Shown in pieces: positions 2,991 to 21,702 of a stretch of DNA of 64,000 nt. A model generated the notes under the pieces. That model was not told the origin of the DNA and did not search any database. It saw only the letters and a list, made by a program, of their open reading frames with translations. Positions within the stretch are counted from its first letter, which is position 1, and every line of letters starts with the position of its first letter. Made by a program: the position numbers and the translations under genes. This stretch comes from Candidatus Heimdallarchaeum aukensis (GTDB taxonomy: Archaea > Asgardarchaeota > Heimdallarchaeia > Heimdallarchaeales > Heimdallarchaeaceae). The stretch is from NCBI GenBank assembly GCA_021513695.1, contig CP084166.1, positions 1,024,001 through 1,088,000 of the forward strand, read 5' to 3'.

Positions 2991-4031
2991 TTATGCTCTT
3001 TCACATTTATTTTTTTCATTATTTTCTACAATACATAGTTCTAGAAGTATATCATACGTTTTTATCATCTCTCTCATAGTTTTTAACATTATTGGGTAAA
3101 GACGCATAATACTATGATTCTTTGTATATTTATAATCTGAATGATAATTAGGATAACGCGAAGCACCAACATGTTTTTCCAAATTCATGCTTAAAATAAC
3201 TATATATGCAAACAGTAGTATAAGATAAAGATAACTTTCTATTTGTACTAACCAATCTTCTTTCTGAATTTGTGTGATAAATTCTTCTCTCAACATTCTT
3301 CGCTCATCAGTTTGCAATTTGATATTATATTCTTGTTCGATTGTTTGAATGACATAGTCTGTTATGCTAATGAACTCTTCTTTCACAATTTTATCAAAAT
3401 TTTCTTTTCTTATGGATTTTATTCCTTTCCTAAATAATGAAAACAGCTTGTTGTATTTAATTAATATTTCCTTTAATGTAGTGTGTTCAAGATACAGAGT
3501 TTCTTCTGATTTCCTTTTTTGCTCATAATCACTCAAATATTTATCAATTGCTTCTATAATGCTTAAAAATCCTTCTCTTTGGTTATCATTAGAATAATCA
3601 GCTAAAGATTCATAGAGATCTTTTAGTTTTTCGAAGAAGAATTTAGTAAAAGTATGTCCAACTTTTATAAGCCGTTCAGTTTGACACAGTCCAGTAAGTA
3701 GAAGTAGTGATTTTCCTAATTTCTCAACAGATTGTTGGAGGAAGAAAATAGACTGTGCATATAGTTTCTTGTGATATAGAATTTTTGAAGCTCTTAAATC
3801 CTCTTCAGCAGTATCTAACAGTCCTAAAGCTGATATTAAATCTCTCTTTTCTGGTGGGATCTCATACTGTGATCCATATTTTAATTGCCATATTAATTGC
3901 CTTTTGATATCTTCTATATCTGTTTCTTGTAATGCAATTTTGTCATTATTATCATTCATTAAATAGCACTGATGGTTAATATTTAAATAATTAATGGCAA
4001 CTATTATCATAATGCAATAAAAATCGAGCAT
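2991..4031 (-). CDS. HEPN-domain protein. The likely true start is the internal Met MNDNNDK near 3959.
   Basis: DLRASKILYHKK carries an Rx6H motif. It is followed by AQSIFFLQQSVEKLGKSLLLL, matching the QxxEKxxK helix typical of HEPN. Confidence 0.5.
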   Translation of the reverse strand: MLDFYCIMIIVAINYLNINHQCYLMNDNNDKIALQETDIEDIKRQLIWQLKYGSQYEIPPEKRDLISALGLLDTAEEDLRASKILYHKKLYAQSIFFLQQSVEKLGKSLLLLTGLCQTERLIKVGHTFTKFFFEKLKDLYESLADYSNDNQREGFLSIIEAIDKYLSDYEQKRKSEETLYLEHTTLKEILIKYNKLFSLFRKGIKSIRKENFDKIVKEEFISITDYVIQTIEQEYNIKLQTDERRMLREEFITQIQKEDWLVQIESYLYLILLFAYIVILSMNLEKHVGASRYPNYHSDYKYTKNHSIMRLYPIMLKTMREMIKTYDILLELCIVENNEKNKCERA

Positions 4032-5447: not shown

Positions 5448-6059
5448 ATGAATCAAAAAGCGACAAAAAATATGTCGGAAGAAGAAAATAAAATGATAAA
5501 AAAATGGATCTATTTAATGTTAGCTGCAGATAACAATAGTTCAATCAAAGGAAAAGTTAGAATAACTAAAGAATTCTTTTTGATTACCAAGCAGTTAGCT
5601 CCTGAAGTATTTAAGGCAGCTCAATTCTATCCTTATCACTTTGGGCCTTATAGTACTCGTTTTGCTGTTTGTGTTAACGAACTGATTAAAAGTAATCATA
5701 TTAATATATTGTATAAAAGTGGAGATTATCATTATGAGTTGTCAAAAAAAGGTTTAGTTGAAGCTAAAAAATATTTGAAAACAATCCCTAAGAAAGAAAA
5801 ACAAGTAATTGATGATATTAAGAAAAAAAGTAAGTCTCAATCTTTAAAATCAATGTTAAAAGAAATTTACGAAAAATATCCTAAGTATACAGTTCGTTCT
5901 GTTATTAAAGCAGATCTTGATACTAAAAAAGTAAACTTAGATTCTGTAGAAAAAGTAGATGATAGTTCAGGGTTTGTTTCAAGTGATATGAAACATGAAC
6001 GTGACATCGTCTTGAAAGGTGAAGCTGCAAAAAGATTTCTAGAAATAATCTCAAAGTGA
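5448..6059 (+). CDS. Putative antitoxin partner of the downstream GNAT toxin. It is unusually long at 203 aa and has a DUF1778/TacA-like C-terminal tail.
   Basis: It ends 8 nt before the GNAT gene. Its C-terminal KHERDIVLKGEAAKRFLEIISK resembles the DUF1778 tail (ERD.VLL..EA..RFL..L). A possible winged-helix region lies at the N-terminus. Confidence 0.4.
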   Translation: MNQKATKNMSEEENKMIKKWIYLMLAADNNSSIKGKVRITKEFFLITKQLAPEVFKAAQFYPYHFGPYSTRFAVCVNELIKSNHINILYKSGDYHYELSKKGLVEAKKYLKTIPKKEKQVIDDIKKKSKSQSLKSMLKEIYEKYPKYTVRSVIKADLDTKKVNLDSVEKVDDSSGFVSSDMKHERDIVLKGEAAKRFLEIISK

Positions 6060-6066
6060 TACATCA

Positions 6067-6570
6067 ATGACTAGTCATGAAGTAGAGTATAAAATTGAGA
6101 AACTAAATATATCTCATACTCTATTAGACTTTGATTGTGGTGATGAAAACGTTAATGAGTATTTTAATCAGAGAAGCTATGAAGAAGTTGAATTAGGTAA
6201 TGCTCAAATTTATGTGTTTATACTTGTGAATACAAATGACCTCATAGGTTTCTATACGCTTTCAATGAAATCTGTTCGTTTTAACTATGAAGGAAGAGAA
6301 TATGATCAACCTGTGTGTTTGCTTGGGCAAATTGGAGTAAATAAAATTTTCCAAAATAAAGGTTGGGGAACAATATTAATTAAAGATGCAAAGAAGAGAT
6401 GTAAAAAAATCTCAGAAGATATTGGAAGCATTGGTTTATTATTGGAAACATATAAAGAAGAATTAGTGAACGGGTTTTTCAAGAAACTTGGTTTCGAATA
6501 TGTTGAACATCACAAAATGAAAAACCGAGGTACAAGATATAGATTGTTTTGCAAACATGAACATGAATAG
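6067..6570 (+). CDS. GNAT-family acetyltransferase, TacT/AtaT/KacT-like toxin.
   Basis: HTLLDFDCGDENVNEYFNQRSYEE...DLIGFYTLSMKSV matches the H..FdCG...LN.yL...A...ivGyytL signature of GNAT toxins. The acetyl-CoA loop is QNKGWGT. The protein is 167 aa. Confidence 0.7.
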   Translation: MTSHEVEYKIEKLNISHTLLDFDCGDENVNEYFNQRSYEEVELGNAQIYVFILVNTNDLIGFYTLSMKSVRFNYEGREYDQPVCLLGQIGVNKIFQNKGWGTILIKDAKKRCKKISEDIGSIGLLLETYKEELVNGFFKKLGFEYVEHHKMKNRGTRYRLFCKHEHE

Positions 6571-6624
6571 AAAAAGGAGAAATGGATATAAAACAGCTTA
6601 CTCTATTTAAAGCTTAAAGCTATT

Positions 6625-6666
6625 TTTGAATATTATTCTTTACTTTTTTCTAGCTCTAATCCTCTC
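6625..6666. repeat. Copy 1 of a 42-bp direct repeat, tttgaatattat[t/c]ctttacttttttc[t/c]agctctaa[t/c]cctctc.
   Basis: It is 39/42 identical to 9084..9125. All three mismatches are T/C transitions. Confidence 0.8.
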
Positions 6667-6901
6667 TTCTTGTTTAATTACTGTAAGTATAATTACTTGT
6701 TCGAGTGTAAGATTGTTGAAGTTCAGTTCAGTACCTAAATCATCCAAAAAAATAGTTATTTAATAGGAATTTATATTTAACTCGAAAAAATCCCATTTTT
6801 AATATTTCTTTATGAAAGTATTTTCAATAAACGGAAAGTTTGCTACAAGAACTCGAAGAGTTTTCTATTACTATTGCAATCCTTCTTTTTTAAAATGTAA
6901 T

Positions 6902-7354
6902 TTATTGTATAGAATCTATGAACCTCTTTAAATCCTCTTCTGGTAAATCAGTATATTTCTTATATCTCTTGAATTTTTTACTGAAGAATTTTATATCAAC
7001 ATAAATTTGTATTTTCTCTTTGCCTTCAATTTGTTTTCTGTCTGTTACAGGAAAAGTTGCCCAATATAACTTGTATTCTTTTGAATGCTTAAGTTCATAT
7101 TGTTGTTGTTTTGGTCTTATCTTTCCTTGATACTCAACACTATCAATTATCATTTTTATGTCCAACAGAAACATGAGTGTAGAAGCAGTTCCAGCATTAA
7201 TTATGTAAAGTCCCCATTCTTTTGCTTGTGGGTTGAATATTGGTCCAGATAAGTTTAGCGAAGCTCTTTTTGGTCTAAAGAAGGATAGGTATACTGTTAC
7301 AACTGACAGAAAAATAGATATTGTAGAGAATATTAATGAGACTACTTCTGTCAT
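6902..7354 (-). CDS. Hypothetical protein with an N-terminal transmembrane helix, 150 aa.
   Basis: ORF with hydrophobic N-terminus VVSLIFSTISIFLSVVTVYLSFF and no recognisable motif. It lies inside the direct-repeat-bracketed cassette. Confidence 0.4.
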   Translation of the reverse strand: MTEVVSLIFSTISIFLSVVTVYLSFFRPKRASLNLSGPIFNPQAKEWGLYIINAGTASTLMFLLDIKMIIDSVEYQGKIRPKQQQYELKHSKEYKLYWATFPVTDRKQIEGKEKIQIYVDIKFFSKKFKRYKKYTDLPEEDLKRFIDSIQ

Positions 7355-7589: not shown

Positions 7590-8933
7590 TTATTCCTCAT
7601 GAAGTAAAGGTGTTTCTAAAAGGACATTTGTTAAGTCGATATTGTTAGGGTTTATTTTTTTTGGATAAACAAAAGAGAAGTGGCAGACGTAAGATTTGTT
7701 GTTTCTTATTATTTTGATCCAAACATTTTCTGGTTTTTCCATTATTATTCTTAACATCCATGATGTATTTTCTTCTGATACTCTAAGCAAGGCATAAAGA
7801 GTTCTTTTTTTTAATTCTAGTGTCTTATACTTTTCGAATTTTTCTTTTAACTGTTCTGCGTTCCCCCAAAAAAGGTTGGGAAAAACTTTTTCATCTTTAT
7901 CAAATACTATTGTTATCTCTTTTATTTTATTGTACTCTGAAATATCTTTCAAGATTTCCTTCTTTTCATCAATAGGGATTCTTTGTTGAATACCTCTAGA
8001 TTTTCTTAAAATTTGATCGAGGAGAAACCATATTGAATTGTCCATATATTTAATAAACGAATTAATTTCCATTTTAAATGCAACTTCTGTTTTTTGTATT
8101 TCTACATTACCTTTTTTATTTATCCAACCGTTTATTTTAAAATAAGAAAAACGAGGATCGACATATTCGAAAGATTGTTTGGGTGGAAAGGTTTTTCCAT
8201 TTTTTCTTGCCAAAGTTATTGCATCTTCTATCCATAATTTGAAATTGGTATTTGCTGACCTTGCGGGAATTTTGTCAATAATAACCCATATCTCATCGTT
8301 ATTGAAATCCAGAACTTTTTTACCACTATGTGTAACAGTATTACGTAAGTATAGAAACACACTGAATGCAAGTGATGGATTGATATATTTATCTGAATAG
8401 GGCTCGTAATGTCTAATTAGTTCATCAAAAATACGTTCATACCTATATCGTTTTAATTCGGGAAGATTATTTAAATACGCTTCTGTGAATCTTGAAGTTA
8501 GTTCCAAAAGTTCCAGACCAGCTGAAACATATGTTTCAAAGAGACATATAAAAAGGAACTTTATAGTTGGTATTTTAGTCCAATCAAATCGTATTTGATA
8601 ATACTCTATTTGGTCTCTTACTAATTGGAAGTACGCAAGTCTATATTTAATGCTGTTTAATGTTTCAATATACCTTCCTTTTTTCACTAATTCATTAATA
8701 TGAAAAACTAGTAAACTGTAGTCTCTTGATTCGTTATGTGCTTCCAGATAGTATGAAAACATACTCAAAACGCCAAGACTTGTATCAAGAACATGCCGAG
8801 AAATACTAATTTCTTTTTTTTCTTTTTTTTCTTTTAACGAATTAAAAAACTCATATTCGTTAAGCAAAATTTTTAACAAAAGTTCATGAGATTCTTTACT
8901 TTCTATTTCTTGCTTATCCTTATTTTGATTCAT
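7590..8933 (-). CDS. Hypothetical protein, 447 aa.
   Basis: Long ORF inside the direct-repeat-bracketed cassette. No motif recognised by eye. Confidence 0.5.
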   Translation of the reverse strand: MNQNKDKQEIESKESHELLLKILLNEYEFFNSLKEKKEKKEISISRHVLDTSLGVLSMFSYYLEAHNESRDYSLLVFHINELVKKGRYIETLNSIKYRLAYFQLVRDQIEYYQIRFDWTKIPTIKFLFICLFETYVSAGLELLELTSRFTEAYLNNLPELKRYRYERIFDELIRHYEPYSDKYINPSLAFSVFLYLRNTVTHSGKKVLDFNNDEIWVIIDKIPARSANTNFKLWIEDAITLARKNGKTFPPKQSFEYVDPRFSYFKINGWINKKGNVEIQKTEVAFKMEINSFIKYMDNSIWFLLDQILRKSRGIQQRIPIDEKKEILKDISEYNKIKEITIVFDKDEKVFPNLFWGNAEQLKEKFEKYKTLELKKRTLYALLRVSEENTSWMLRIIMEKPENVWIKIIRNNKSYVCHFSFVYPKKINPNNIDLTNVLLETPLLHEE

Positions 8934-9083
8934 TTGTTATTAATATTATTTTATAACAAAATAAAAAAGTTTAGTTAAATATTACTGTGCAATTCTTCCT
9001 CTATTTTGATAAATAAATGAACTAGAATAATTTTCTTTCCAAGAATAAACTGCCTTTAAGGATAGTTAATAAGTAGTTAAAGG

Positions 9084-9125
9084 TTTGAATATTATCCTTT
9101 ACTTTTTTCCAGCTCTAACCCTCTC
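9084..9125. repeat. Copy 2 of the 42-bp direct repeat.
   Basis: It matches 6625..6666. It is immediately followed by the CT-rich tract 9126..9300. Confidence 0.8.
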
Positions 9126-9300
9126 CCCTCTCCCATCTTTACAATCCTTCTTTCCCCTGAAATTATTTTTTTTGTTTCCTTTTTCTATATTCTCTTTTCT
9201 TTCTAACCAACCTTATACTCTTTTTCTTTACCTTTGTTCTTGTTATTGCTTTTGTTACTGTTTTTAGTCCTAGTTCTGTACTATTAGTTCAGTCTCTTTT
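9126..9300 (+). repeat. Polypyrimidine (CT-rich) low-complexity tract.
   Basis: Seen directly as cctctcccctctcccatctttacaatccttctttcccc..., with the same compositional style as 700..960. ORF 9085..9267 is an artefact. Confidence 0.7.
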
Positions 9301-9500
9301 TTAGGATAATCTGTGGATAGTAATTCTTCAAGAAATTAGAGGAAAAATATGAAATCAATAATAAACTTTCTCTAAATTGTCTTAAGGTCTTCTTCTAGTT
9401 ATAACCTCCTTACAAGAAGATGCTTTACTTTGCAACAAAATGAAAAATAAACTAAAGAAACTATTCATAGGGTTTAAATACTTATTTCTCGTATAGGCTA

Positions 9501-10637
9501 ATGATGGAAATAAACAAAATTTATCTTAAAGATTGTATAGAAGGTATGAAGGAACTTCCTGAAGATAGCATAGATTTAATATTTGCAGATCCACCATATA
9601 ATCTTCAATTGAAAAATGAATTATATCGACCTAATCAGTCATTAGTGGATGCTGTAAATGATGAATGGGATAAATTTTCATCATTTGAAGAGTACGATGA
9701 TTTTACAAAAAAGTGGTTATCAGAATGTAGGAGGGTGTTAAAAAAAACAGGTTCTATATGGGTAATAGGGTCGTATCACAATATATTTAGAATCGGAAAA
9801 ATAATGCAAGATTTAGGTTTCTGGATATTAAATGATATCATTTGGATAAAAACAAACCCTATGCCAAATTTTAGAGGTACTAGATTTAATAATGCACATG
9901 AAACTCTGATTTGGGCTTCGAAAAATGAAAAAGCTAAACCTACTTTTCATTATAAAGCTATGAAGGTATTTAATAATGATAAACAAATGCGAAGTGATTG
10001 GTATATTCCAATTTGTATAGGAAAAGAAAGGTTGAAATTAAACGGAAAAAAATTACATTCTACACAAAAACCTGAAGCATTGCTATATAGAATAATAATA
10101 TCAACATCAAATGTAAATGATATAGTGCTTGATCCTTTTATGGGTTCAGGTACTACAGCTGCAGTAGCAAAGAAACTAAGAAGGAATTTTATTGGTTTTG
10201 AAACAAATGAAATATATGTAAAAGCAGCAAGAGAGAGAGTTGTTAAAGTCATACCCATGGATCCTGACATTTTGGATTATAAAGTGGAAAAAAAACCACC
10301 AAAAGTTCCTTTTGGTACTTTAGTAGAACATAATTATATTAAAGCTGGAGATTGGCTTTATTCAAAAGATATGAGATATAAAGCAATAATAAAAGCAAAT
10401 GGGTCAATTGAATATCAAGGTAAAAACGGTTCTATTCATAAAATTAGTGCTCAAATTTTAAATAAAAAAGCAAATAATGGATGGGATTTTTGGTATGTAA
10501 AAGAAAACGATAATCTTGTATCGATTGATACTATTAGAAGAAATTATGCAAGTAAAAACATGAATTATATGAATGATGAAATAGATATGAGAAATAAAAA
10601 AGTAACAGACAAACTTTTAACTAATTACTTGGAATAA
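9501..10637 (+). CDS. CcrM/M.HinfI-family beta-class N6-adenine DNA methyltransferase (probable GANTC specificity) with the CcrM-type C-terminal domain.
   Basis: Motif IV DLIFADPPYNLQL precedes motif I VLDPFMGSGTTAAVAKKL. Near-colinear matches to Caulobacter CcrM as I recall it include WVIGSYHNIFRIG, LGFWILNDIIWIKTNPMPNFRGTRFNNAHETLIWASK, KQMRSDW, HSTQKPEALLYRII, and C-terminal PKVPFGTLVE...GSIHKISAQIL...NGWDFWYV. Confidence 0.9.
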   Translation: MMEINKIYLKDCIEGMKELPEDSIDLIFADPPYNLQLKNELYRPNQSLVDAVNDEWDKFSSFEEYDDFTKKWLSECRRVLKKTGSIWVIGSYHNIFRIGKIMQDLGFWILNDIIWIKTNPMPNFRGTRFNNAHETLIWASKNEKAKPTFHYKAMKVFNNDKQMRSDWYIPICIGKERLKLNGKKLHSTQKPEALLYRIIISTSNVNDIVLDPFMGSGTTAAVAKKLRRNFIGFETNEIYVKAARERVVKVIPMDPDILDYKVEKKPPKVPFGTLVEHNYIKAGDWLYSKDMRYKAIIKANGSIEYQGKNGSIHKISAQILNKKANNGWDFWYVKENDNLVSIDTIRRNYASKNMNYMNDEIDMRNKKVTDKLLTNYLE

Positions 10638-10642
10638 TCTTC

Positions 10643-11512
10643 GTGCTTACTAATTATCTTCCCTATGAAGTTTTTAAAAGAATATTAACAAAGACAATCT
10701 TTCAAAATGCTAAAATAAGTTTATTAGAAAAAGTTGCTAAATATCCTTCAAGATATACAGGTTTATTTAGGCCTACCAAACCTAAATTAAAATTAATCCA
10801 GAACATTACTCAATCAAATGAAATTCTATTTGGCGATGCTTTTGAGATCATAATTAATGAATATTTGAATAGATTAGGTTTCTCTCCAATTAAAAAAAAT
10901 TATTCCTATAATGGAAATGACTTAATGTTTGATCAGATTGTAGGAAAAGAAAATACTATTATTTACATAGAACAAAAAATAAGAGATGATCATGATTCAA
11001 CAAAAAAAAGAGGTCAAATAGAAAATTTTGAGAAAAAGGGTGAATTATTATTGAAACTATATCCTGATTTCAAAATTACTGGTATAATGTATTTTATAGA
11101 CCCAAATTTAAAGAAAAATCGAAGATATTATATGCAAGAATTACAAAGAATAAGTACTCAATTTAATTTTGAAACTCATCTCTTTTATGGAAAAGAGTTT
11201 TTTGAATGGATAGGAAAAGATGAAATCTGGTTAGAAATAACAAGCTATTTATCAAAGTGGAAAGAAGAGATACCTGATTTTCCCACAATTAATTTTGATG
11301 AAAATCCCGAAGAATCTTTTGAGGAAATCAAGCATCTACAACCTAATTTACTGATAAAGCTTCTAAGAAATGATGCAATATGTAAGGAGATTTTTCCCGA
11401 ATTGTTCCCGGAAAAAACGACATTAAATCTACTTCTGGAATACTATATTCATGAAAGAGAAAAAAATAAGACTAATACAATGGTTATTGAACATTTAAAA
11501 AAAGTGTTGTGA
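10643..11512 (+). CDS. Putative Type II restriction endonuclease cognate to the CcrM-like methyltransferase.
   Basis: GTG start 6 nt after the methyltransferase stop. A candidate PD-(D/E)xK core lies at DLMFDQIVGKENTIIYIEQKIRDD (D...ExK). No other homology recognised. Confidence 0.45.
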   Translation: MLTNYLPYEVFKRILTKTIFQNAKISLLEKVAKYPSRYTGLFRPTKPKLKLIQNITQSNEILFGDAFEIIINEYLNRLGFSPIKKNYSYNGNDLMFDQIVGKENTIIYIEQKIRDDHDSTKKRGQIENFEKKGELLLKLYPDFKITGIMYFIDPNLKKNRRYYMQELQRISTQFNFETHLFYGKEFFEWIGKDEIWLEITSYLSKWKEEIPDFPTINFDENPEESFEEIKHLQPNLLIKLLRNDAICKEIFPELFPEKTTLNLLLEYYIHEREKNKTNTMVIEHLKKVL

Positions 11513-12322
11513 AAAAAAATCTAAAATCACAAAAAAGATCTATATAATTGTACGATTTTTTGTTCAAAAAAAAACTATCACCGTTTGATTGACATGTTAT
11601 AAAAATAGTTTCTGAAGAAAAACCTTTACATCCATTAACTCTCAGATGCTTTATACCATTATTTTGAAATAGATACTACATGCTTGAATTAAAATGAATT
11701 TCTGGACTAGTTGATTTTCCTTTCTTAATTATAAATTATATAATTTTCCTAATTGAATTGAGAGATAATTTTTCTTTTTCAAACCAAGCATGATCTATTA
11801 TAGGAGGTTTTAAACGGAGAAGATTCAAACTTTGGATATATATTCTACATATATTATAAATATTGTTTGATATTCATCATTTGAGTTTCTCAATAAAAGA
11901 TTATTCCATATTTTAGTTTCTAGTTTGAAGATTATGAATTATTTAATAAATGTCTTAAATTCGGGATACCTTTCTTTCATATTTTCCTCAGAATCATGTA
12001 ATGGAATTTGTAGTGTTCCTTTTACTAATATTCTATATTCCTCAAGTTTAAGAATATGATTTGATTATAGCAGTGTGCCATTACTTGTTATGTTTGTTGT
12101 TATTTTTTTCGATAAATGTAGAGATTCTGGTAAAGAAATAATGTTTTCAGTTATGAATTGTATATTATCATGAAATCTAACCTTCTTAATTTAACTCAAA
12201 TTAATTAAGTAGTAAAGATAATAAAAGAAGGTATCTAAATGTTTATTGCGGAGATTTATTATAGGGTTTTTAATTTTCATCTCCCACATCGAATAATACG
12301 CATTTATCAATAAATCCTTATA

Positions 12323-13342
12323 TTAATTAGAGCAATATGAAGTTTTATTTGTGAAAATTTCAGGATCATCTAGTTCTCTCAATCTTTTAAGTGTAACACT
12401 TTTCCATTTATCATAAAAATCAACTAAAATACCTTCTTTTTCCTTTAATGTTGGTTTTCCTGTATCATCATCCATAATAAATTCAAATCCGTAATCAATC
12501 TTAAAATTAAATTGATCTGTATGCAAAACTCTTTCATGAGGAAACTTAATATCGTTATCCAAAGATGAACAAAAATTATAATGTCGAACTTCAATATGAA
12601 TTGATGAGTTTGAATATAAACCAAGCCAGTCCATTATATTTTTCTTTGTTGATTGAGGATTATATCTATTTGCTTTCGGTGTTGTAGTACAAATAATAAA
12701 ATTGCCATTTCTTATATTCTCCTTTTCAAATTGTTTTACTAACCAATTTAATGTTTTATAGTGTCGCTTATTATTAACTAAATTTACACCAAGATATCTG
12801 TCCACAATCATTACTTCCTTTGCAAATCTGAATATCTTTTTGATAAATCTTGAATGCACTTCTGTTAAATTATTTAATTCTGCTAAGTTTAATGATGTAT
12901 TCTGTATTTTATTGTAGAAATCTATTTCTGTAATTAATTCCTCTGATACATAGCTACTACTCAATTTTCCAATTTCACACTTATTTCTACAATTATTGTA
13001 AGGAAGTATTATCCAATCTGGATTTTCTCTGCTTTGAATTTCACAATAAGCTATACATTCATCTTTTTTTTTCTTTCCTTCAATTTTAATTTCAATTATT
13101 CTTCTATTATTTTGCATATTCGAAAGCATTTCTTCTATGATGAGTCTTTCTTCTATTGGTATAAGTGAAAGGGTTTTTGATTTAATAGGTAAACTAAAAC
13201 CTTCTGGTTTTAGAAGTATACCGTTTTTTCTAAGGGAAATCAATAAAGAAACTAATATTTTAGAACGATACATAATAAGCGTAGAATTTTCAGAATTGTC
13301 ATCTAAAATTTTAGGAGATAATACAAATGTCTGTACCGTCAT
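12323..13342 (-). CDS. Partner protein of the ABC ATPase, 339 aa. It carries a Cys4 element with a possibly degenerate HNH-like scaffold.
   Basis: Its start overlaps the upstream stop (ATGA, 13339-13342). ECIAYCEIQSRENPDWIILPYNNCRNKCEIGK has Cx3C...DWIILP...Cx3C, reminiscent of the HNH DHIIP/CxxCN arrangement but with W in place of H. Confidence 0.4.
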   Translation of the reverse strand: MTVQTFVLSPKILDDNSENSTLIMYRSKILVSLLISLRKNGILLKPEGFSLPIKSKTLSLIPIEERLIIEEMLSNMQNNRRIIEIKIEGKKKKDECIAYCEIQSRENPDWIILPYNNCRNKCEIGKLSSSYVSEELITEIDFYNKIQNTSLNLAELNNLTEVHSRFIKKIFRFAKEVMIVDRYLGVNLVNNKRHYKTLNWLVKQFEKENIRNGNFIICTTTPKANRYNPQSTKKNIMDWLGLYSNSSIHIEVRHYNFCSSLDNDIKFPHERVLHTDQFNFKIDYGFEFIMDDDTGKPTLKEKEGILVDFYDKWKSVTLKRLRELDDPEIFTNKTSYCSN

Positions 13343-15249
13343 TCAAATAGCTCCTTATAACTTAGATCAAAGAAATCATCTGGCCATTCATTTATAAAAT
13401 TACCATGTTTGTCAAATTCGATAGGAACTATATTAGCTCCTAGTTTTGTTTTTTCAACAAATATAATTGATATAAGTTTTGGACTTATTTTCTTTTTCCT
13501 AATGAGTTTTTTGATTCGTAGAATTAATTGTTGACTATGAGTTTCAATTATAAATTGTTTTGATAAATTCCTTTTAACATGTTCAACAAAAAATTCTCCC
13601 AATTCAGCTTGCAATCTTGGATTAAGATGTATCTCTGGTTGTTCTATTAAAAGAATTTCATTTGGTTTATTTGACATTATCGTTTGTACAAGAATGGGGA
13701 GAACCTGACTCACACCAAATCCAATATCCGGTAATGCCACCGGATATTTTGTGATATTATCTTCGAATTTCAAGGAATATACCCCTGATAGTTTGTCTTT
13801 ATCTGCTGTATATGAGACTGTGTAACCGATTTTTAGTTTTTTCAACCAATTATTTAGTTCATTTATTTTATTTTTATATGAATAGATAAAATCTGCTGTT
13901 TTTGATCCTGAAACACCTACATTAATAGGTCTACTCCCTCCAAATATGTAATATCGAGATGGTTTATCTCTAAGAGGACCAATAAAAGTAATGCTCTTCA
14001 TCAATTCAATGAATTGATTTCTATTCTCTTCAGTCACGTCATAATCAAAATATAAATTCTTTTTTCCATGTTCAAGTTTAAAAAACGTGTTGATTTTAAG
14101 TAATTCACCTTTAATTGGATTACCAACAAATTCAATAGATAAATTATGATGAATAAACTTAATTAATTTGTTAATTAGATCTGTTTCTATCTCCGATGGG
14201 TCTTTAAACATAATAATTCTAAATAATTTCTCAATTTTCATATTAATTGATTCTTCAATTAGAATCCTAAAATCATGATCGATTAAAATATCATCTTTTA
14301 TTTCATTTAAACCAATTTCAACCTTTTTGCAAATTTTTTCAATTATTTTATCTTTTTTTAACAGAAAAAATTTGTTTTTTTCTAATTCTCTTCTAATTTT
14401 TTCTACTATATTTTTAATTTCAATTTTTTTCGCTTGACTATTTTCCTGATAAATTTTCAATATAGTTTCTATAGGAACTTTAATATTAATCGTAGGAATT
14501 TTATCGTTATCAAAATGAATCTTCTTTTCAATTTTTTCTTCTATATCAAAGACATCAATTTTAAATTTCTCTTCATATGCAGAATAAGAGATTATAAATG
14601 GTGTATCAATGTTTTCAACAATTGTGATTTTCTTGTATCCTCCAGATATTGACTCTCTCAAAAACGGTAAAAGAATCATCGGTATAACTCTTTCTGTACT
14701 TATTTTTGAAAGAGAACAAGTATATTTTATCCGCTGATAAATCCTAGAATTTTCTGTTTTGCAATATACTAATTTTGCTGAAATTAATGATTTTTCAATC
14801 TTTTTGCCATAATTTCTAGATATTCCCCATATTATTTTATCTAAAAGAATGTAAGGTCTCTCTTCAATCTTTTTTGAAATGTATGTTAAGTTGATTTTGA
14901 ATTTTTTAAAAATCCTTTCCTTGTATGGTGAAATATGAAGATAATCTGAGGATCGCCACTGTAACCCAATTTCAACTCTTTTTCTAGTATCATGACCAAA
15001 AACAATTTCTTCGAAAGGTCCAATATCAACATAAGTCCCTTGATGTAGAAGAACATTATTTGGGTCATTGTCTTCTATAGTTTGTTTTAAGGCTAAAAGT
15101 GATTTCAAAATAGATGATTTTCCACTACTATTTTCTCCAAATATCAGTGTAATCGGTTTACATGGTATTCTAGAGCCCTTTTTTCCAAAGGCTTTAAAAT
15201 TTCTTAAATAAATTTCAGTTAACATGAACAAACACCAAGTTTCTTTCAT
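13339..15249 (-). CDS. ABC/OLD-type ATPase of the AAA_15/AAA_21 kind, similar to the ATPases of Septu PtuA, PARIS AriA and AbiL.
   Basis: N-terminal LTEIYLRNFKAF...ITLIFGENSSGKSSILKSL is the Walker A. C-terminal ILLIEQPEIHLNPRLQ is the Walker B/D-loop, and FIIETHSQQLI is the H-loop. A long insert separates the two halves. Confidence 0.8.
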   Translation of the reverse strand: MKETWCLFMLTEIYLRNFKAFGKKGSRIPCKPITLIFGENSSGKSSILKSLLALKQTIEDNDPNNVLLHQGTYVDIGPFEEIVFGHDTRKRVEIGLQWRSSDYLHISPYKERIFKKFKINLTYISKKIEERPYILLDKIIWGISRNYGKKIEKSLISAKLVYCKTENSRIYQRIKYTCSLSKISTERVIPMILLPFLRESISGGYKKITIVENIDTPFIISYSAYEEKFKIDVFDIEEKIEKKIHFDNDKIPTINIKVPIETILKIYQENSQAKKIEIKNIVEKIRRELEKNKFFLLKKDKIIEKICKKVEIGLNEIKDDILIDHDFRILIEESINMKIEKLFRIIMFKDPSEIETDLINKLIKFIHHNLSIEFVGNPIKGELLKINTFFKLEHGKKNLYFDYDVTEENRNQFIELMKSITFIGPLRDKPSRYYIFGGSRPINVGVSGSKTADFIYSYKNKINELNNWLKKLKIGYTVSYTADKDKLSGVYSLKFEDNITKYPVALPDIGFGVSQVLPILVQTIMSNKPNEILLIEQPEIHLNPRLQAELGEFFVEHVKRNLSKQFIIETHSQQLILRIKKLIRKKKISPKLISIIFVEKTKLGANIVPIEFDKHGNFINEWPDDFFDLSYKELFE

Positions 15250-15317
15250 TCACACTCTTGATGAATTCTTTACAAATTTATGTAATAAAAATAAAAACTT
15301 TTCTGGAATATCTATGT

Positions 15318-18300
15318 TTAATTTTCACTAAGATATTTTATTATTTTAGGAAGTAGGAAAACATTTTTTCTTAATGTTGAAAAACTTAATGCTTCTCCTA
15401 GAAGTGTGTGAACTTGTTTAGGTATTTTTCCAAACATTGGATGACTAACTACATATCCATAGGTAAATGATTTGAAATTCCCACTTTCTATTATTACACG
15501 CATTGGCTCTTCCAACAAGCTCATATCACCAAAGTAAATGCTTGATAATGGTGATGATAATGCTCTTAAACGTTCAATAGTTGCTTTTTCAATATCTTCA
15601 CTCAAAAAAATATCACTATCTTCTATTATATCAAGAGTTATTAATAAATATGAATCACCAGCAAATATAATTGGTGGACTTAAAAGTTTACTAAATTTTT
15701 TTGCTAATGAAAATGCATTATTTGTTGAGTTGATAAAATGATATAAGCTTGGATATTTTCTACTTTTTTCATCTTTTTTTACATTTCTTCCATAATAAGT
15801 TCTGACCATCTTTTCTAAGTAGTTTAATCCTTTATTTATTGTGTATAAGTTTCGAGGTTTTTCCAGATAATTAAGTATTTCTTGTTTATCTGTTTTGTCA
15901 TAAGCTTTTACTGTTACACGAAAACCTTTTGCTATTTGTTGATTAGTGACTTTATAGAATAGATAAGAAGGTATCGTCATATCATTCCATCTACCTGCTT
16001 CATTAAATGTAAGTATAAATTCAGGAGAGGGATATAATCTGAAATGGTTTAATGCTGTTTTTATAGATGGAAAATAATTTTTCAAAAAATCATCTAAATA
16101 GATATTATCAACTGAAAATGCTCTTTTACTAACTCTTCCAAATAGACTGAATTTTCTTTTAGTTCTTTCCGAAATCTTGCTTCTGCTAAAAACTGGTAGG
16201 ACATGTTCATTATTGTTGATTAGTATATCTCTAATAAAACTTCTTAACTGATGAAATTTGATATTTTGATCTTTTAGAGTGGCATTTTTGTTCAAAGCAG
16301 AAATCATAGACACTAATCTTGGCTTCAAATCTGTTTCTTCTCCTCTCATCCTTTTAATTACTTGCCTAAAATATTCTAGATTGATCATAGAATCGAAATA
16401 AGTTGTTGAGCCATAGTCTGTTTTTAAGGGGAAAGGAGGAAGGATAATTAAAATTTCATGCCATGAATATGTAGTTCCAAATGCTAATGAAGAGGTTCCT
16501 ACTATATTTTTTTTAGGTGTTTCTTCTATTAATAATGTGTCACGAGAATCGTGAGTAATAGAAACTGCATCATAATTGTTTAAATGGAGGTATTCTACTA
16601 ATGAATCTACAAACTGTTTATTGTTAACATAAAAAATTACTTTACCCTCTTGTAAATATTTTTCAAATGATTTTTTTCTATTGTCAATTCGTGATTTTTT
16701 TACAAGCTTGTCTAATATTTCAAAAATTTTTTTAAAATTTATTTCCTCTTCATATTTACCCTCACAAATAAATGATGCTGCACAATAATCAATATTGAAA
16801 TTTAAGAGATATCTCAGAAAAATACCTTTAATCGGAGTATTAATTATTTTAAATTCCTCTGGTTCTTGAATGTCTTCATTAAAATTAGTTATTTGAAATT
16901 GTGTCATCCATTTTTTTGAATTTGGATCAACTAATGTGTTCAACATGGAAATTACTAATTTCATACTTGTGATAGATGCATCAGTAATTACAAAGCGAGG
17001 AACATTTATGTTATTATTTACCATTAATCGATTCCTTGCTTCTATTAGTAAATCAATAAAATTTTTTGCAACTGTTGGTCCAGAATTAGTTAATTCATCA
17101 AAGATGAACATATATGTCTTTGTGAATAGTAATTTCCAATTGTATGATTGTTTTAGAAAATAATCTAAAGCTTGGGAAGATACTAATATAACTTTTTGTC
17201 CTTGTTTCTCTAGTGCTTTTTTCAATCGATTTCCTGTTTCACTGAAAATTGTTTCATACCCCTTAAGTGTTATTGGATCTCTTATTAACTCTTTTTCTCT
17301 TTTACCAATAATTAATTCTAAATGGACATTTTTTTCTATATCATTTTTGATTAATCTTTGAATTTTATCTTTAGTTTGTATTAAGGTTGTAATTCTTGGA
17401 CAGAAATACAGAATAGTAAAGTTTTTTTTAGTTTTTGCAAGCTTTTTAATATAATTTGCAATCACATAATTTTTTCCAACACCTTGAGATGAACCATTTA
17501 TTATTATATTATAACAATCATTGGTTAATAATTTTAGGAAGTTCTTCTCATGTTCTTTTCTTACATTTTCTATTTCGTTTCTAGTAACACTCTGTCTTTT
17601 TACGATAGAAGGTTGAATCTTCTCTTTAGTTTCAGGATAAGCTTCAATAAATTCTGTTTTTTCATCCTTCAAAATTATTTTTAACTCCTCTCCTCTAGTT
17701 CCTTCAAAAAAATACATTCTTTTATTGTTTTTTTCTTTTATTCTCATCGATATTTTTCCACTCATAAATAATTCAAAAATTCGTCTTCTTTCAAAATCTT
17801 CCAATATATATTCTTTCTTTTTACCAAATTCTGTTTCCACTATAGTACTAGGAATCAAGTTACATAGAAATCGTAATATTTTCCTTAAATCGGTTTCAGA
17901 TTTAATATGAAAAGAAGATATAGCTCCAGGTAAAACTATTTGAACTTCAATCTCACTGTTATAATTTTGAGTTTCGTTATAATATAATTGTGCATAGGAG
18001 AATACTTTTAAGTATTTCTGGAGAGCTGTTGCAATTCTGTAAAAATCTCTTGCAGGAATCTTTTTGTTCTTATGTAAATTTAGTTTTCTTAGTTTTTCCT
18101 TTGAAAAATCTTCGACAATTAATTGTTCAATATAATCTTGAAGTAATCGCTCTTTCGTCATATTTACAAAAAATATATATGATTTAATATCGCCAATACA
18201 TAAGAACTCGATTTGGTTCATTTCATAATTAAAGGCTTCCTCTTGATTGTTAGATGTTTTCTTTCTAATGATTATAAAATCAGGTTTTTTTTCCCTAAAT

Positions 18301-18779
18301 GTTGGTTCTATAAATATTTCTAATTCTGTATCTGGTTTTTTCCATTCAAGATTTGCATTTAGTAATACCGATATTGAACATTGAAATCCTGTTTTTATCA
18401 TTCTTAAGGCTGTATATCCCACTTTTTGTTCTTCCAAAATATCTGTGATTTCTCTTTCATCAATCTTTAAGTCTGTTCTAAACATTTGCCTTTTTTGAAA
18501 ATAATTTTTAAATATTAAGTACGAATCTGTGATGCTTGATTTTCTGATAAATAAATCGATTGCTTGTTCTATCTGTATTCCAATTACATTTTCAAGATAT
18601 GAATTCAACTCTATTCTATTTTCAATATCTAAAATAGGTGGTTCAATTCTTATGCCTACAAAAGGTTTAATGTTGTAGCATTTTGATTTTGACGCAATTC
18701 CAAGAAAGAATCCAAATTCAAGTGCTTCTCCATATATTAATGGTGCTATTCTATTAATTTTCTTTTCGTAATTTACCAT
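15318..18779 (-). CDS. Large (1153 aa) P-loop NTPase or helicase-like protein with a possible N-terminal PD-(D/E)xK nuclease fold.
   Basis: Central Walker A IIINGSSQGVGKNYVIANY, Walker B-like YMFIFDELTNSG, and a possible motif III at VITDASIT. The N-terminus has ELEIFIEP...KKPDFIIIRKK...EFLCIGDIKSY (E..PD...DxK-like). Its start lies 1 nt after the stop of the upstream 973-aa gene. Confidence 0.55.
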   Translation of the reverse strand: MVNYEKKINRIAPLIYGEALEFGFFLGIASKSKCYNIKPFVGIRIEPPILDIENRIELNSYLENVIGIQIEQAIDLFIRKSSITDSYLIFKNYFQKRQMFRTDLKIDEREITDILEEQKVGYTALRMIKTGFQCSISVLLNANLEWKKPDTELEIFIEPTFREKKPDFIIIRKKTSNNQEEAFNYEMNQIEFLCIGDIKSYIFFVNMTKERLLQDYIEQLIVEDFSKEKLRKLNLHKNKKIPARDFYRIATALQKYLKVFSYAQLYYNETQNYNSEIEVQIVLPGAISSFHIKSETDLRKILRFLCNLIPSTIVETEFGKKKEYILEDFERRRIFELFMSGKISMRIKEKNNKRMYFFEGTRGEELKIILKDEKTEFIEAYPETKEKIQPSIVKRQSVTRNEIENVRKEHEKNFLKLLTNDCYNIIINGSSQGVGKNYVIANYIKKLAKTKKNFTILYFCPRITTLIQTKDKIQRLIKNDIEKNVHLELIIGKREKELIRDPITLKGYETIFSETGNRLKKALEKQGQKVILVSSQALDYFLKQSYNWKLLFTKTYMFIFDELTNSGPTVAKNFIDLLIEARNRLMVNNNINVPRFVITDASITSMKLVISMLNTLVDPNSKKWMTQFQITNFNEDIQEPEEFKIINTPIKGIFLRYLLNFNIDYCAASFICEGKYEEEINFKKIFEILDKLVKKSRIDNRKKSFEKYLQEGKVIFYVNNKQFVDSLVEYLHLNNYDAVSITHDSRDTLLIEETPKKNIVGTSSLAFGTTYSWHEILIILPPFPLKTDYGSTTYFDSMINLEYFRQVIKRMRGEETDLKPRLVSMISALNKNATLKDQNIKFHQLRSFIRDILINNNEHVLPVFSRSKISERTKRKFSLFGRVSKRAFSVDNIYLDDFLKNYFPSIKTALNHFRLYPSPEFILTFNEAGRWNDMTIPSYLFYKVTNQQIAKGFRVTVKAYDKTDKQEILNYLEKPRNLYTINKGLNYLEKMVRTYYGRNVKKDEKSRKYPSLYHFINSTNNAFSLAKKFSKLLSPPIIFAGDSYLLITLDIIEDSDIFLSEDIEKATIERLRALSSPLSSIYFGDMSLLEEPMRVIIESGNFKSFTYGYVVSHPMFGKIPKQVHTLLGEALSFSTLRKNVFLLPKIIKYLSEN

Positions 18780-18780
18780 T

Positions 18781-21702
18781 TTATATCAACTTCTCCTGAA
18801 TTTTTATTCTGTTTATCCCTTTGATGAAAATACTTGGATCTAGCAACTTTTTGGAATCAGGATATGGTAGATGAAATAACCTTTTTAAACTTTCAATACT
18901 AATTCCGCCTTTTTCATCTCCGTAAATGGTTAATATTCTTGAGAATTCTTTCAAATAAGAAATAGTTTCTTCAGACGATCTTTCATATGGTATTACAGTA
19001 AAAATAAGAGACGGTTGTAAATCTTTTTTAATTTCACCCTCAAGCTTTTCTTCTCTTCTCGAACCAAAAATCAACATTCCAACTATTTTTCTCTTATCTC
19101 TTCCATTATATTTCAAAGGTTCATTAATATATATAATTAATTGTCTATTTGATTTTGACTTTGGCAGTAATTTTCCAATTTCTCTTGAAGGAGTAAAAAT
19201 AGCTTTTTCATTAAAAACAAACAATGGAATTTTTAATTGTTTATTCTTTTCAAATATCCAGTCAATAATGGTATCTTCTTTACTAAGATCACTATCTTGT
19301 ATTTTTCTATTTACAGATTCAGATATAATGTCATAAGTGCTCTCCGTTCTTGAACTATGTTTAGCTCTTATTAAAATTAGAATATCTTCTTTTGCTAATT
19401 CTGATACTATTAGTGAGGCTAATTCAAAATTTATATCGCATCCTATGTTTCCAAATGAATCTTCTATAAAGTTTTCCTCCATTACATTAATTTCTCGTTC
19501 ATCAGTTAGGTGAGCATAAGCTGCGATATTTCTTATGTATCTTTGTTCTTCTTTAATTATTTCGACCCATTTTTCTGATGAAAGAGAAAGTAATAATATA
19601 TCTTTTGTTTTTATTAATTTATCAAGAGCTTTATCATGTAGAGTATATCCCGCTGTAGAAGTATTTTTTAAGGAGTGTGAAGTAAAATACCATTCATCCA
19701 TAAATAATCTTCCAAAAGCTTTATTTATATTATGATAATTTGATAAAAACTTGTACAAATAGATACCAGGTAAAGCAATTTTTTTCTCTTTGGAAGCTGT
19801 TTGATAAGTAAATAATTCTACTTTACCTATGTTATCAAAAGTATAAAATGAAAAAGGTCCATCGAAGTATTTTAAGATTTGATTTTTTGACCATACTACA
19901 TTCCCGTTTTTTCTAATACCATCTTTTGTCATCATTTGAACATTAATACGTCTTCTTGACCTATTGATTGTACTTTTATTTTGCCAGATTTTCTTTATTA
20001 TTTGCCTAATCTCTTTTTCTTTATATTCTTTTGATAAAGAATCAAAAGAAAAGCCTTGAGAATATTCGAAATATTTTGTTTCCCATGAGTGTACTCCTTT
20101 TAATAACATATAATAAAATTCATGAAAAAGACTTCTTTTTACTTTCTTCGATAAATATGGGATAAACCAAATGTTATCTCCTCCTTTTACAAATCTAAAT
20201 TCATGATTAAGCCTTGTTAAAGATTGTTTAATATCAGGGTCATTAATTAGGTATAGTATTGCACTATCTATAACTGCCTTTAAAGATGCAAAAAATCTAT
20301 AATTGTCGTTGTTTAGTCTTTCTCTCAAATCTGTATTAATTCTTTTGTGATATATTTCAATTTCTTCTGGAAAAAATTCAGTATTTGCTATAAGATAAGT
20401 GATAAATTCTTGTAATCCATATTCTTTATCTCCATACCAGATAGATGTTTTATTTTTTTCATCAATTCCTTCATTCTTTTTTAAATAAATATTTTCATGA
20501 ATAAAAACTATCAATCTTTTTGGATTTATTTGTTTGGGAGAGATGTTTATCTTTTGAATTCTTTCTAATTTCTCTTTTTTTGCGCATAAGTAATGATCAA
20601 ATTCTGGAAATTCACAATTTTCAACAATTTCCTTTAGTTTATCAAATAATTCTTCAAAATCTTTATAACTTATTTCGTTAAAACCTAAAAGTATTGAAAA
20701 AGCGAATAATTTATCTTTAATATCTTCAACCATTTCTAAGAATTCTTGGTCATTTGTATCCATTTGTTCCATTATCCATTCTTGAAGGTTAATGAGTAAA
20801 GGCAAGATTGTTTTTTCTTTATTCCAGCCTTCTCCATATATTCTGAAACAATAAAGGTTTTTATCATAATCTTCATGAAGATTAAGAAATTTTGGGCAGC
20901 TTCCTACAGAGATTAATCCAGGAAAAGAAGGAAATGACATACCTTTGAAACTATGATTTATTATTTTCTCAAACAGAGTTTTCTCTTCAGCTGATAATTT
21001 TTTAATAAATTTATCATTCTTAAGTAAGACGGTACATTCTTTCTTAAAATCTAAATATCTGTCGTATGCAGCATTACGAACTTCTTCATTTCTAATGTAT
21101 TTTATATAATATTTTACTAATTTTTTCTGAACTGGATTATTAATAATGTTTGAAAATTGCTCTGTAGCTTTAATGGAAACTTCTTCTGCTTTTAAAGCTG
21201 TTTTAAAAAATGAAATTGGAATCTCATTTTCATGAATTTTCTCATTTGCGTTTCTAAATCTTGATTCATTTTCTTGAATTTCAATATAAGAAAAAGTAGA
21301 ACCAACTTCTTCTGATTTCCATTCATCTCGCTTTGCTTTATCCCATAATGTTGCTGGATTTTCATACTTTTTTTCTTTTTTCATTAACTCTTCTTTAATT
21401 GTGATTATAACTTTGTCGCTTATCTCTAATAATGTAGTATTAGGACTTTGGACAATTCTAGATTTTAGCTTTTTCACCAGTAACCAATTTTGTAACGAGG
21501 GATCAGATATTTCATTAATTTCTTCTAATGTATTTTGATACGCTTTGTGAACTATTCTACAAAAATCATCAAAGGGATATGTTATAGTACAAAGCATATC
21601 AAAGAATTTTTTATCCTGAATATATTCTGAAATTAATTTTGAGAAGAATATAGACCAAAATTCTTTATCTATTCCTTCTGTTAGTTTTACTAATCTAGCC
21701 AC
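18781..21702 (-). CDS. Large (973 aa) hypothetical protein, first gene of the four-gene operon.
   Basis: Uninterrupted ORF with no P-loop and no motif recognised by eye. It is preceded by a 670-bp AT-rich promoter region. Confidence 0.5.
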   Translation of the reverse strand: MARLVKLTEGIDKEFWSIFFSKLISEYIQDKKFFDMLCTITYPFDDFCRIVHKAYQNTLEEINEISDPSLQNWLLVKKLKSRIVQSPNTTLLEISDKVIITIKEELMKKEKKYENPATLWDKAKRDEWKSEEVGSTFSYIEIQENESRFRNANEKIHENEIPISFFKTALKAEEVSIKATEQFSNIINNPVQKKLVKYYIKYIRNEEVRNAAYDRYLDFKKECTVLLKNDKFIKKLSAEEKTLFEKIINHSFKGMSFPSFPGLISVGSCPKFLNLHEDYDKNLYCFRIYGEGWNKEKTILPLLINLQEWIMEQMDTNDQEFLEMVEDIKDKLFAFSILLGFNEISYKDFEELFDKLKEIVENCEFPEFDHYLCAKKEKLERIQKINISPKQINPKRLIVFIHENIYLKKNEGIDEKNKTSIWYGDKEYGLQEFITYLIANTEFFPEEIEIYHKRINTDLRERLNNDNYRFFASLKAVIDSAILYLINDPDIKQSLTRLNHEFRFVKGGDNIWFIPYLSKKVKRSLFHEFYYMLLKGVHSWETKYFEYSQGFSFDSLSKEYKEKEIRQIIKKIWQNKSTINRSRRRINVQMMTKDGIRKNGNVVWSKNQILKYFDGPFSFYTFDNIGKVELFTYQTASKEKKIALPGIYLYKFLSNYHNINKAFGRLFMDEWYFTSHSLKNTSTAGYTLHDKALDKLIKTKDILLLSLSSEKWVEIIKEEQRYIRNIAAYAHLTDEREINVMEENFIEDSFGNIGCDINFELASLIVSELAKEDILILIRAKHSSRTESTYDIISESVNRKIQDSDLSKEDTIIDWIFEKNKQLKIPLFVFNEKAIFTPSREIGKLLPKSKSNRQLIIYINEPLKYNGRDKRKIVGMLIFGSRREEKLEGEIKKDLQPSLIFTVIPYERSSEETISYLKEFSRILTIYGDEKGGISIESLKRLFHLPYPDSKKLLDPSIFIKGINRIKIQEKLI

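Follow-up and report, generated by a model that had tools for sequence, protein, structure and literature searches.

A probable GANTC-type restriction-modification operon in the Asgard archaeon Candidatus Heimdallarchaeum aukensis

Results

A methyltransferase gene and an endonuclease gene five nucleotides apart

We analysed a stretch of 64,000 nucleotides (nt), referred to as the window, from the Asgard archaeon Candidatus Heimdallarchaeum aukensis (family Heimdallarchaeaceae), and in it a cassette of two genes, one for a DNA methyltransferase (M) and one for a restriction endonuclease (R). M occupies positions 9504..10637 of the forward strand and encodes a protein of 377 amino acids (aa), a beta-class N6-adenine methyltransferase of the CcrM/M.HinfI family with GANTC as its predicted target. 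R follows on the same strand at 10643..11512, starts with GTG and encodes a 289-aa protein of the HpyAIV/HinfI family with a PD-(D/E)XK fold. The two genes very probably constitute a canonical Type IIP operon, in the order M-R, of the HinfI/HpyAIV (GANTC) kind. A preliminary description of the locus, made from the sequence without database searches, had placed them in an AT-rich and apparently archaeal genome. This was borne out, as the G+C content of the window is 29.8% and the endonuclease is 100% identical to 'restriction endonuclease [Candidatus Heimdallarchaeum aukensis]', found in a large protein database and encoded on a contig of 3,081,793 bp. Public records already annotate the M-R pair by homology; restriction, methylation and GANTC go unmentioned in the genome paper (Wu et al. 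2022).

M can be read from either of two ATG codons. The longest form in the list of open reading frames (ORFs), which begins at the alternative ATG 9501 (9501-10637, forward strand, 378 aa), had no exact match in public protein records, because public gene calls begin the methylase at 9504. The 377-aa form matched exactly on four public contigs, one of them longer than 1 Mb, and the Heimdallarchaeota homologues align from the second ATG, at 9504. Between the stop codon of M and the start codon of R lies the 5-nt spacer TCTTC (10638..10642, forward strand); the earlier statement that R follows 6 nt later agrees with this, since five bases intervene and R starts 6 nt after the last base of the M stop codon. 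In other Heimdallarchaeota cassettes the spacers measure 5-8 nt. A tRNA scan and an Rfam scan of the 64-kb window gave no matches.

The methyltransferase retains the recognition residues of CcrM

The catalytic domain of M (9570..10232, forward strand; residues 24-244 in the numbering of the 378-aa form) was matched by Pfam N6_N4_Mtase (PF01555) at 3e-70. Its motifs stand in the order of the beta class, with DPPY (motif IV, residues 30-33) preceding FMGSGTT (residues 213-219), which binds S-adenosylmethionine (AdoMet). A RAMA domain follows towards the C-terminus (10287..10559, forward strand; residues 263-353; Pfam RAMA 1.2e-14) and is the predicted equivalent of the 80-residue segment with which CcrM and M.HinfI bind the non-target DNA strand. 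The preliminary description had recognised this DNA-binding domain and called it specific to CcrM; the domain is indeed present, but such a segment also occurs in M.HinfI, in many beta-class enzymes of several phyla and in one archaeon (PMC7672430).

Among solved structures, the best match of M was CcrM of Caulobacter (PDB 6pbd; phmmer, E 4.5e-130). Query residues 10-348 aligned to chain residues 19-360 with three single-residue gaps, at an identity of 56% overall, 64% in the catalytic core and 40% in the C-terminal domain, so that the colinearity with alphaproteobacterial CcrM noted earlier extends through the C-terminal domain. The CcrM residues involved in strand separation and backbone contacts are L42, R44, W57 and D58 of Loop-2B, N120, P123, N124, F125, G127, R129 and N132 of Loop-45, and S315, H317, N330, W332 and R350, which make the C-terminal contacts (PMC7672430). 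In the 6pbd alignment, with the 8-residue offset of the chain allowed for, all 16 of these recognition residues were identical in M. The 11 loop residues lie within the segments NELYRP, DEWD and NPMPNFRGTRFNN, and the five C-terminal contact residues within GSIHKI, NNGW and DTIRR. On the NCBIfam CcrM equivalog NF050803 M scored 558 bits, below the curated cut-off of 830 bits, and it is therefore a member of the family and not an orthologue of CcrM. With PADLOC, the MTase_II model (1e-171) was placed slightly above the orphan-methylase model (5e-159).

Beyond the RAMA domain M carries a tail of ~25 aa (10560..10634, forward strand) that ends in ...DKLLTNYLE. Endonuclease-linked methylases of other Heimdallarchaeota bear a tail of the same type with the conserved ending DK.LTQFF, and the sequence that initiates translation of R may lie within the DNA of the tail. 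A peptide, LTNYL, is shared by the end of M (10618-10632, ..KLLTNYLE*) and the start of R (10646-10660, MLTNYLP..). We rejected a duplication at the junction as its origin and regard the match as probably coincidental, because other cassettes keep the DK.LTQFF ending while the heads of their endonucleases differ.

The downstream gene encodes a PD-(D/E)XK restriction enzyme

R scored 246 bits against the NCBIfam model NF045832, 'HpyAIV family type II restriction enzyme', whose cut-off is 160 bits; the alignment joined residues 7-262 of the protein to positions 2-267 of the 269 in the model. The PADLOC model REase_II PDLC03497 also matched R (7e-76), and a weak signal of the YraN/UPF0102 nuclease fold was seen. 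In a large protein database R had 1909 homologues, and the 120 listed ones, including the 100%-identical entry P0001, all bear a precomputed PF09520 ('HinfI') label.

The catalytic core of R (10931..10978, forward strand) comprises D97 and E110-Q111-K112, followed by the block R114-D-D-H-D-S. Alignments of 22 and of 120 homologues showed E60, D97, E110-Q111-K112 and the RDD.DS block to be invariant, which confirms the D...ExK core that had been read from the sequence at the outset. An AlphaFold model of R, built on the alignment of 120 sequences, reached a pLDDT (predicted local distance difference test) of 92.8 and a pTM (predicted template modelling score) of 0.83. In this model D97 stands just before strand 98-102 and E110 and K112 lie on strand 105-112, the canonical PD-(D/E)XK placement as predicted, and the best structural matches of the model were PD-(D/E)XK restriction enzymes. 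A match of the downstream protein to a non-nuclease family, which would have spoken against the preliminary description, was thus not what emerged: R passes the HpyAIV model and has a restriction-enzyme fold.

M and R are linked across the family

Relatives of the cassette were collected by scanning 185,579 species genomes, one genome per species, with an endonuclease alignment. It detected 330 relatives; the best 80 of them, together with loci obtained through exact protein look-ups, form the locus set. The methylase was located directly upstream of the endonuclease, that is, within ~60 nt and on the same strand, at 78 of the 83 loci that have both genes. Four endonuclease loci lacked a methylase match, and at three of them the endonuclease sits at the start of the contig. 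Neighbour-joining (NJ) trees of M and of R gave the same major groups, namely the DPANN archaea, a mixed group of Patescibacteria and Altarchaeum, Bacteroidota with Ignavibacteria, Saccharibacteria, and a group of Rickettsiales, Helicobacteraceae, Spirochaetes and Endomicrobium. Because the M-R order recurs and the two trees share their major groups, the two genes appear to be transferred and to evolve together, a hallmark of genuine restriction-modification operons. The gene order and the passing of the HpyAIV model by R support the initial view of the locus as a Type II restriction-modification pair and not an orphan cell-cycle methylase.

One clade, which includes Patescibacteria, Altarchaeum and others, has a different layout, absent from the window, in which a second and shorter methylase follows the endonuclease (M1-R-M2; L019-L021, L027, L031-L033, L037, L040-L042, L044, L046 and L047). 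This M2 is a protein of ~250 aa, is ~56% identical to the core of the window methylase, aligns to residues 1-250 only and is without the C-terminal domain.

The cassette belongs to a Heimdallarchaeota lineage

The top three endonuclease matches among the species genomes were Heimdallarchaeota metagenome-assembled genomes (MAGs), at 59-60% identity, and the remaining matches within the best 80 of the 330 relatives, bacterial or archaeal, did not exceed 54%. In bootstrapped NJ trees the window copy grouped with Heimdallarchaeota MAGs and two probably archaeal metagenomic contigs (M 100/100, R 99/100). The window methylase is 73-81% identical to Heimdallarchaeota copies, 60-70% to endonuclease-linked methylases of Patescibacteria, Bacteroidota, DPANN and others, and 56% to Caulobacter CcrM and to a Rickettsiales homologue, which are both among the most distant of the 54 methylases compared. 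The resemblance to CcrM, initially read as a special sign of transfer, is a property of the whole family, other relatives being 60-81% identical to M as against the 56% of CcrM.

Transfer between domains is evident for the family, because its archaeal and bacterial members interleave, and the domain boundary was crossed several times. The window copy itself has long been part of the Heimdallarchaeota and did not arrive recently from Alphaproteobacteria, since its clade contains Heimdallarchaeota alone (bootstrap 100 for M and 99 for R) and has an archaeal TATA promoter in common. The inter-domain transfer proposed earlier therefore holds for the family as a whole but not as a recent bacterial acquisition of this copy. 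The G+C content of M and R and their G+C content at third codon positions (GC3) are near those of the host, if slightly lower. Related cassettes were seen in a different genomic context in each Heimdallarchaeota genome.

A conserved motif, probably an archaeal promoter, precedes M

A conserved element, TTCATAGGGTTTAAATACTTATTTC (9464..9488, forward strand), begins 40 nt before the ATG at 9504 and includes the archaeal TATA box TTTAAATA (9473-9480), which lies at -31 to -24 relative to that ATG. In 6/6 endonuclease-linked Heimdallarchaeota loci the motif TTCATAnnGTTTAAATAC..ATTTC occurs without change and at this 40-nt distance, although their proteins are only ~72-77% identical; the orphan methylase copies described below lack it upstream. 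Its agreement with the archaeal TATA consensus and its spacing suggest that the element acts as a promoter. Given the usual archaeal distance from TATA box to start site, its position relative to the ATG predicts a leaderless or near-leaderless mRNA, with transcription beginning at ~9501-9504. Comparison of the flanks (8934-9500 and 11513-12322) with all related loci by tblastx and blastn found no gene remnants, only the 26-nt promoter motif.

Predicted target specificity and GANTC sites

M.HpyAIV (hp1352) is an experimentally confirmed Type IIP beta-class methylase that makes N6-methyladenine (m6A) in GANTC (PMC3936762), and both CcrM and M.HinfI act on GANTC (PMC7672430). By homology, GANTC is the most likely specificity of the pair. 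The window contains 129 GANTC sites. Base composition predicts 175, and Markov models of first and third order predict 224 and 167 (observed/expected 0.58 and 0.77, respectively). Three sites fall inside the cassette, at 9790, 10994 and 11312, so that an active endonuclease requires an active methylase.

Orphan relatives of M in other Heimdallarchaeaceae

Methylases of this type also occur as orphans in Heimdallarchaeaceae MAGs, in three genomic contexts (L001/L002/L003, L004 and L005/L006/L007), and no endonuclease remnants were detected beside them at E <= 10. At 356-368 aa the orphans are shorter, and when aligned by BLAST to the window methylase they reach residue 350-355 and stop before the 25-aa tail. 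The window methylase grouped with two of the orphan copies (bootstrap 80/100). Losing R is the usual decay path of restriction-modification systems, and the simplest reading of these comparisons is that the orphans would stem from repeated loss of R; a regulatory role for them is possible. That the window cassette represents the ancestral state, from which several Heimdallarchaeaceae kept only the CcrM-like methylase, would be a further step and is in our judgement unlikely.

The window contains a second methylase-like ORF at 34029-35312 (forward strand, 427 aa), which matches Pfam N6_N4_Mtase (6.5e-18) and UPF0020. A 435-aa protein encoded at 5902-7209 of the orphan locus L004 belongs to the same Pfam families.

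Genomic surroundings of the cassette

Downstream of R an AT-rich stretch of 810 bp (11513-12322) contains no ORF of >= 50 aa and has no similarity in related loci. It is followed on the reverse strand by an ORF without family match (12323-13342, 339 aa) and by an ATPase gene (13339-15249, 636 aa; AAA_21/AAA_15/DUF3696; PADLOC NsnB 1.7e-58, HEC-03B, PDC-M55A and AriA), which overlaps the former by 4 nt. This two-gene module (12323-15249) is probably a separate candidate defence system. Two large adjacent genes, also on the reverse strand (15318-21702), encode proteins of 1153 aa, with a ResIII helicase match only, and of 973 aa, with no Pfam or PADLOC match, and may be an uncharacterised defence pair. 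Upstream of the cassette, in the same low-GC region, a HEPN-domain protein is encoded on the reverse strand (2991-4031, 346 aa, HEPN 1.5e-07), possibly another defence or toxin component. The block 9345-21702 has a G+C content of 26.6%, versus 30.8% for 22001-64000.

A strain contig, L096 (JGI Ga0366836_1006437), matches the window over 9345-13636 at 99.56% identity and keeps both genes, and its 1,034 bp upstream of ~9345 match nothing in the window or in the related loci examined. The comparison of the two sequences places a strain-level breakpoint at ~9345, ~160 bp upstream of the methylase gene. Further upstream, a 42-nt direct repeat, TTTGAATATTATYCTTTACTTTTTTCYAGCTCTAAYCCTCTC, is present at 6625-6666 and 9084-9125 (39/42 identical) and brackets a 2.46-kb segment with two reverse-strand ORFs without family match (6902-7354, 150 aa; 7590-8933, 447 aa). 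These repeats look like att sites, but no integrase was seen. Direct or inverted repeats that would bracket the cassette itself were sought between 8800 and 12500, which gave only short matches at chance level and no target-site duplication, and neither an integrase nor a transposase flanks the cassette. Relatives of the cassette family were present in 6 of 2.9 million viral contigs, all at <= 52% identity; as none is close, there is no evidence that the cassette is virus-borne. The surroundings look like a variable defence island, for which the breakpoint at ~9345 and the 42-nt repeats at 6625 and 9084 are candidate borders.

Discussion

We propose that the conserved archaeal TATA-box promoter would drive transcription of M and R into one mRNA, probably leaderless. 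M would use AdoMet to make N6-methyladenine in GANTC on both strands, through strand-separating recognition of the CcrM/M.HinfI type, and R, as a Mg2+-dependent PD-(D/E)XK enzyme, would cut unmethylated GANTC, so that incoming virus or plasmid DNA would be destroyed while the sites of the host remain protected. The position of M as the first gene and the GTG start of R 5 nt after the M stop codon would keep expression of R lower than, and dependent on, that of M. The cassette represents one lineage, specific to Heimdallarchaeota, of a family with repeated transfers between bacteria and archaea, and is resident in the chromosome, in an AT-rich and strain-variable neighbourhood of defence genes.

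Among known systems, HpyAIV of Helicobacter pylori offers the nearest parallel to this pair, in that the window endonuclease passes the HpyAIV equivalog and its partner is a beta-class methylase of the GANTC type with the C-terminal segment. A Helicobacteraceae MAG (L092) has the same M-then-R layout, yet its proteins are only ~48% (R) and ~52% (M) identical to those of the window. The window cassette differs from HpyAIV in its archaeal host, its archaeal TATA-box promoter and the extra ~25-aa tail of M. The likeness of R to HinfI of Haemophilus influenzae (G^ANTC) comes through the precomputed PF09520 labels of its homologues, the local Pfam scan being without PF09520. M is colinear with CcrM of Caulobacter crescentus, with 56% identity and the recognition residues kept, and the target is presumably the same, GANTC; whereas CcrM is an orphan cell-cycle regulator of Alphaproteobacteria, M is followed after 5 nt by its cognate endonuclease. 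Among solved structures the model of R comes closest to EcoO109I (RG^GNCCY), which shares 12% identity with it, has a different recognition sequence and shows no homology detectable at the sequence level.

Several observations weigh against a functional GANTC system. The specificity and activity of the pair are predictions from homology. A local Pfam hmmscan assigned neither R nor two homologues to any family, with matches admitted up to E <= 10, and when R was compared by sequence with solved structures only chance matches came up (E > 0.1). No controller (C) protein or other regulator was found. The closest relatives of the window methylase are the orphans of other Heimdallarchaeaceae MAGs (74-81% identical), so this lineage may readily lose R, and an intact R ORF is then no guarantee of activity. 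GANTC avoidance, suggested in the preliminary description as a check, was seen as a mild depletion in the window that is compatible with restriction pressure but is not diagnostic; two unrelated motifs, CTNAG and AGNCT, are depleted in the window equally or more.

These points bear on other explanations of the locus. A functional pair of the same architecture might recognise a sequence other than GANTC, given that the specificity is deduced from family membership only, that the methylase is 56% identical and not near-identical to CcrM, and that the depletion of GANTC is weak. All Loop-2B, Loop-45 and C-terminal residues with which CcrM recognises GANTC are kept, however, the characterised members named here (CcrM, M.HinfI and M.HpyAIV) all act on this sequence, and R passes a model at equivalog level; we consider a different target quite improbable. 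Still less credit is due to the idea that M serves effectively as an orphan regulator like CcrM, next to an endonuclease gene that is silent or inactive and being lost. It would accord with the grouping of M with Heimdallarchaeaceae orphans (80/100), which stand in three contexts with no endonuclease remnant nearby, and with the score of the PADLOC orphan-methylase model (5e-159). Yet R is full length and has every residue that is invariant in 120 homologues, the catalytic triad included, the cassette still has the M tail, 5-nt spacer and promoter typical of endonuclease-linked copies, and the 99.6%-identical strain keeps both genes, which makes such decay very improbable.

A recent horizontal acquisition from a bacterium, specifically of an alphaproteobacterial CcrM-type gene, appears extremely unlikely. 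M is colinear with CcrM at 56% identity and the family is mostly bacterial, with archaeal and bacterial sequences interleaved, but few of the 54 methylases are more distant from M than CcrM and the Rickettsiales homologue, M and R fall in an exclusively Heimdallarchaeota clade (bootstrap 100 and 99), the archaeal TATA promoter is common to this clade at a fixed spacing, and G+C and GC3 are close to the host range. The cassette might instead be primarily a selfish, mobile addiction element that persists by post-segregational killing, with defence as an incidental effect, an explanation compatible with the operation of the pair as a GANTC restriction-modification system. The different contexts of related cassettes from one Heimdallarchaeota genome to the next, the promoter that travels with the cassette, the different left flank of the near-identical strain from ~160 bp upstream of M and an island more AT-rich than the rest of the window are all in keeping with it. 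No transposase, integrase or terminal repeats flank the cassette, though, the 6 of 2.9 million viral contigs with a relative include none that is close, and the neighbours are defence-like, as in ordinary defence islands; we regard a primarily selfish role as somewhat unlikely.

Restriction-modification is the commonest defence in archaea, accounting for 45% of the known systems in archaeal genomes (PMC11291487), and descriptions of Asgard methylomes and restriction-modification systems have begun (PMC11529989). A GANTC-type pair in Ca. H. aukensis adds little that is new, as it represents a common type of defence, was already annotated and has a C-terminal segment already noted in an archaeon (PMC7672430). 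It does illustrate neatly how a cassette of bacterial type can carry an archaeal TATA-box promoter, one conserved throughout the Heimdallarchaeota clade. It also yields a testable prediction, that the adenines of GANTC would be methylated in Ca. H. aukensis, which would be useful for the reading of long-read methylation data and for planning DNA transfer into Asgard enrichments. Finally, the cassette points to the orphan CcrM-like methylases of related Heimdallarchaeaceae. If the orphans serve epigenetic regulation through GANTC, archaea would have domesticated such a methylase independently, much as Alphaproteobacteria did with CcrM, and this within the archaea that stand closest to eukaryotes.

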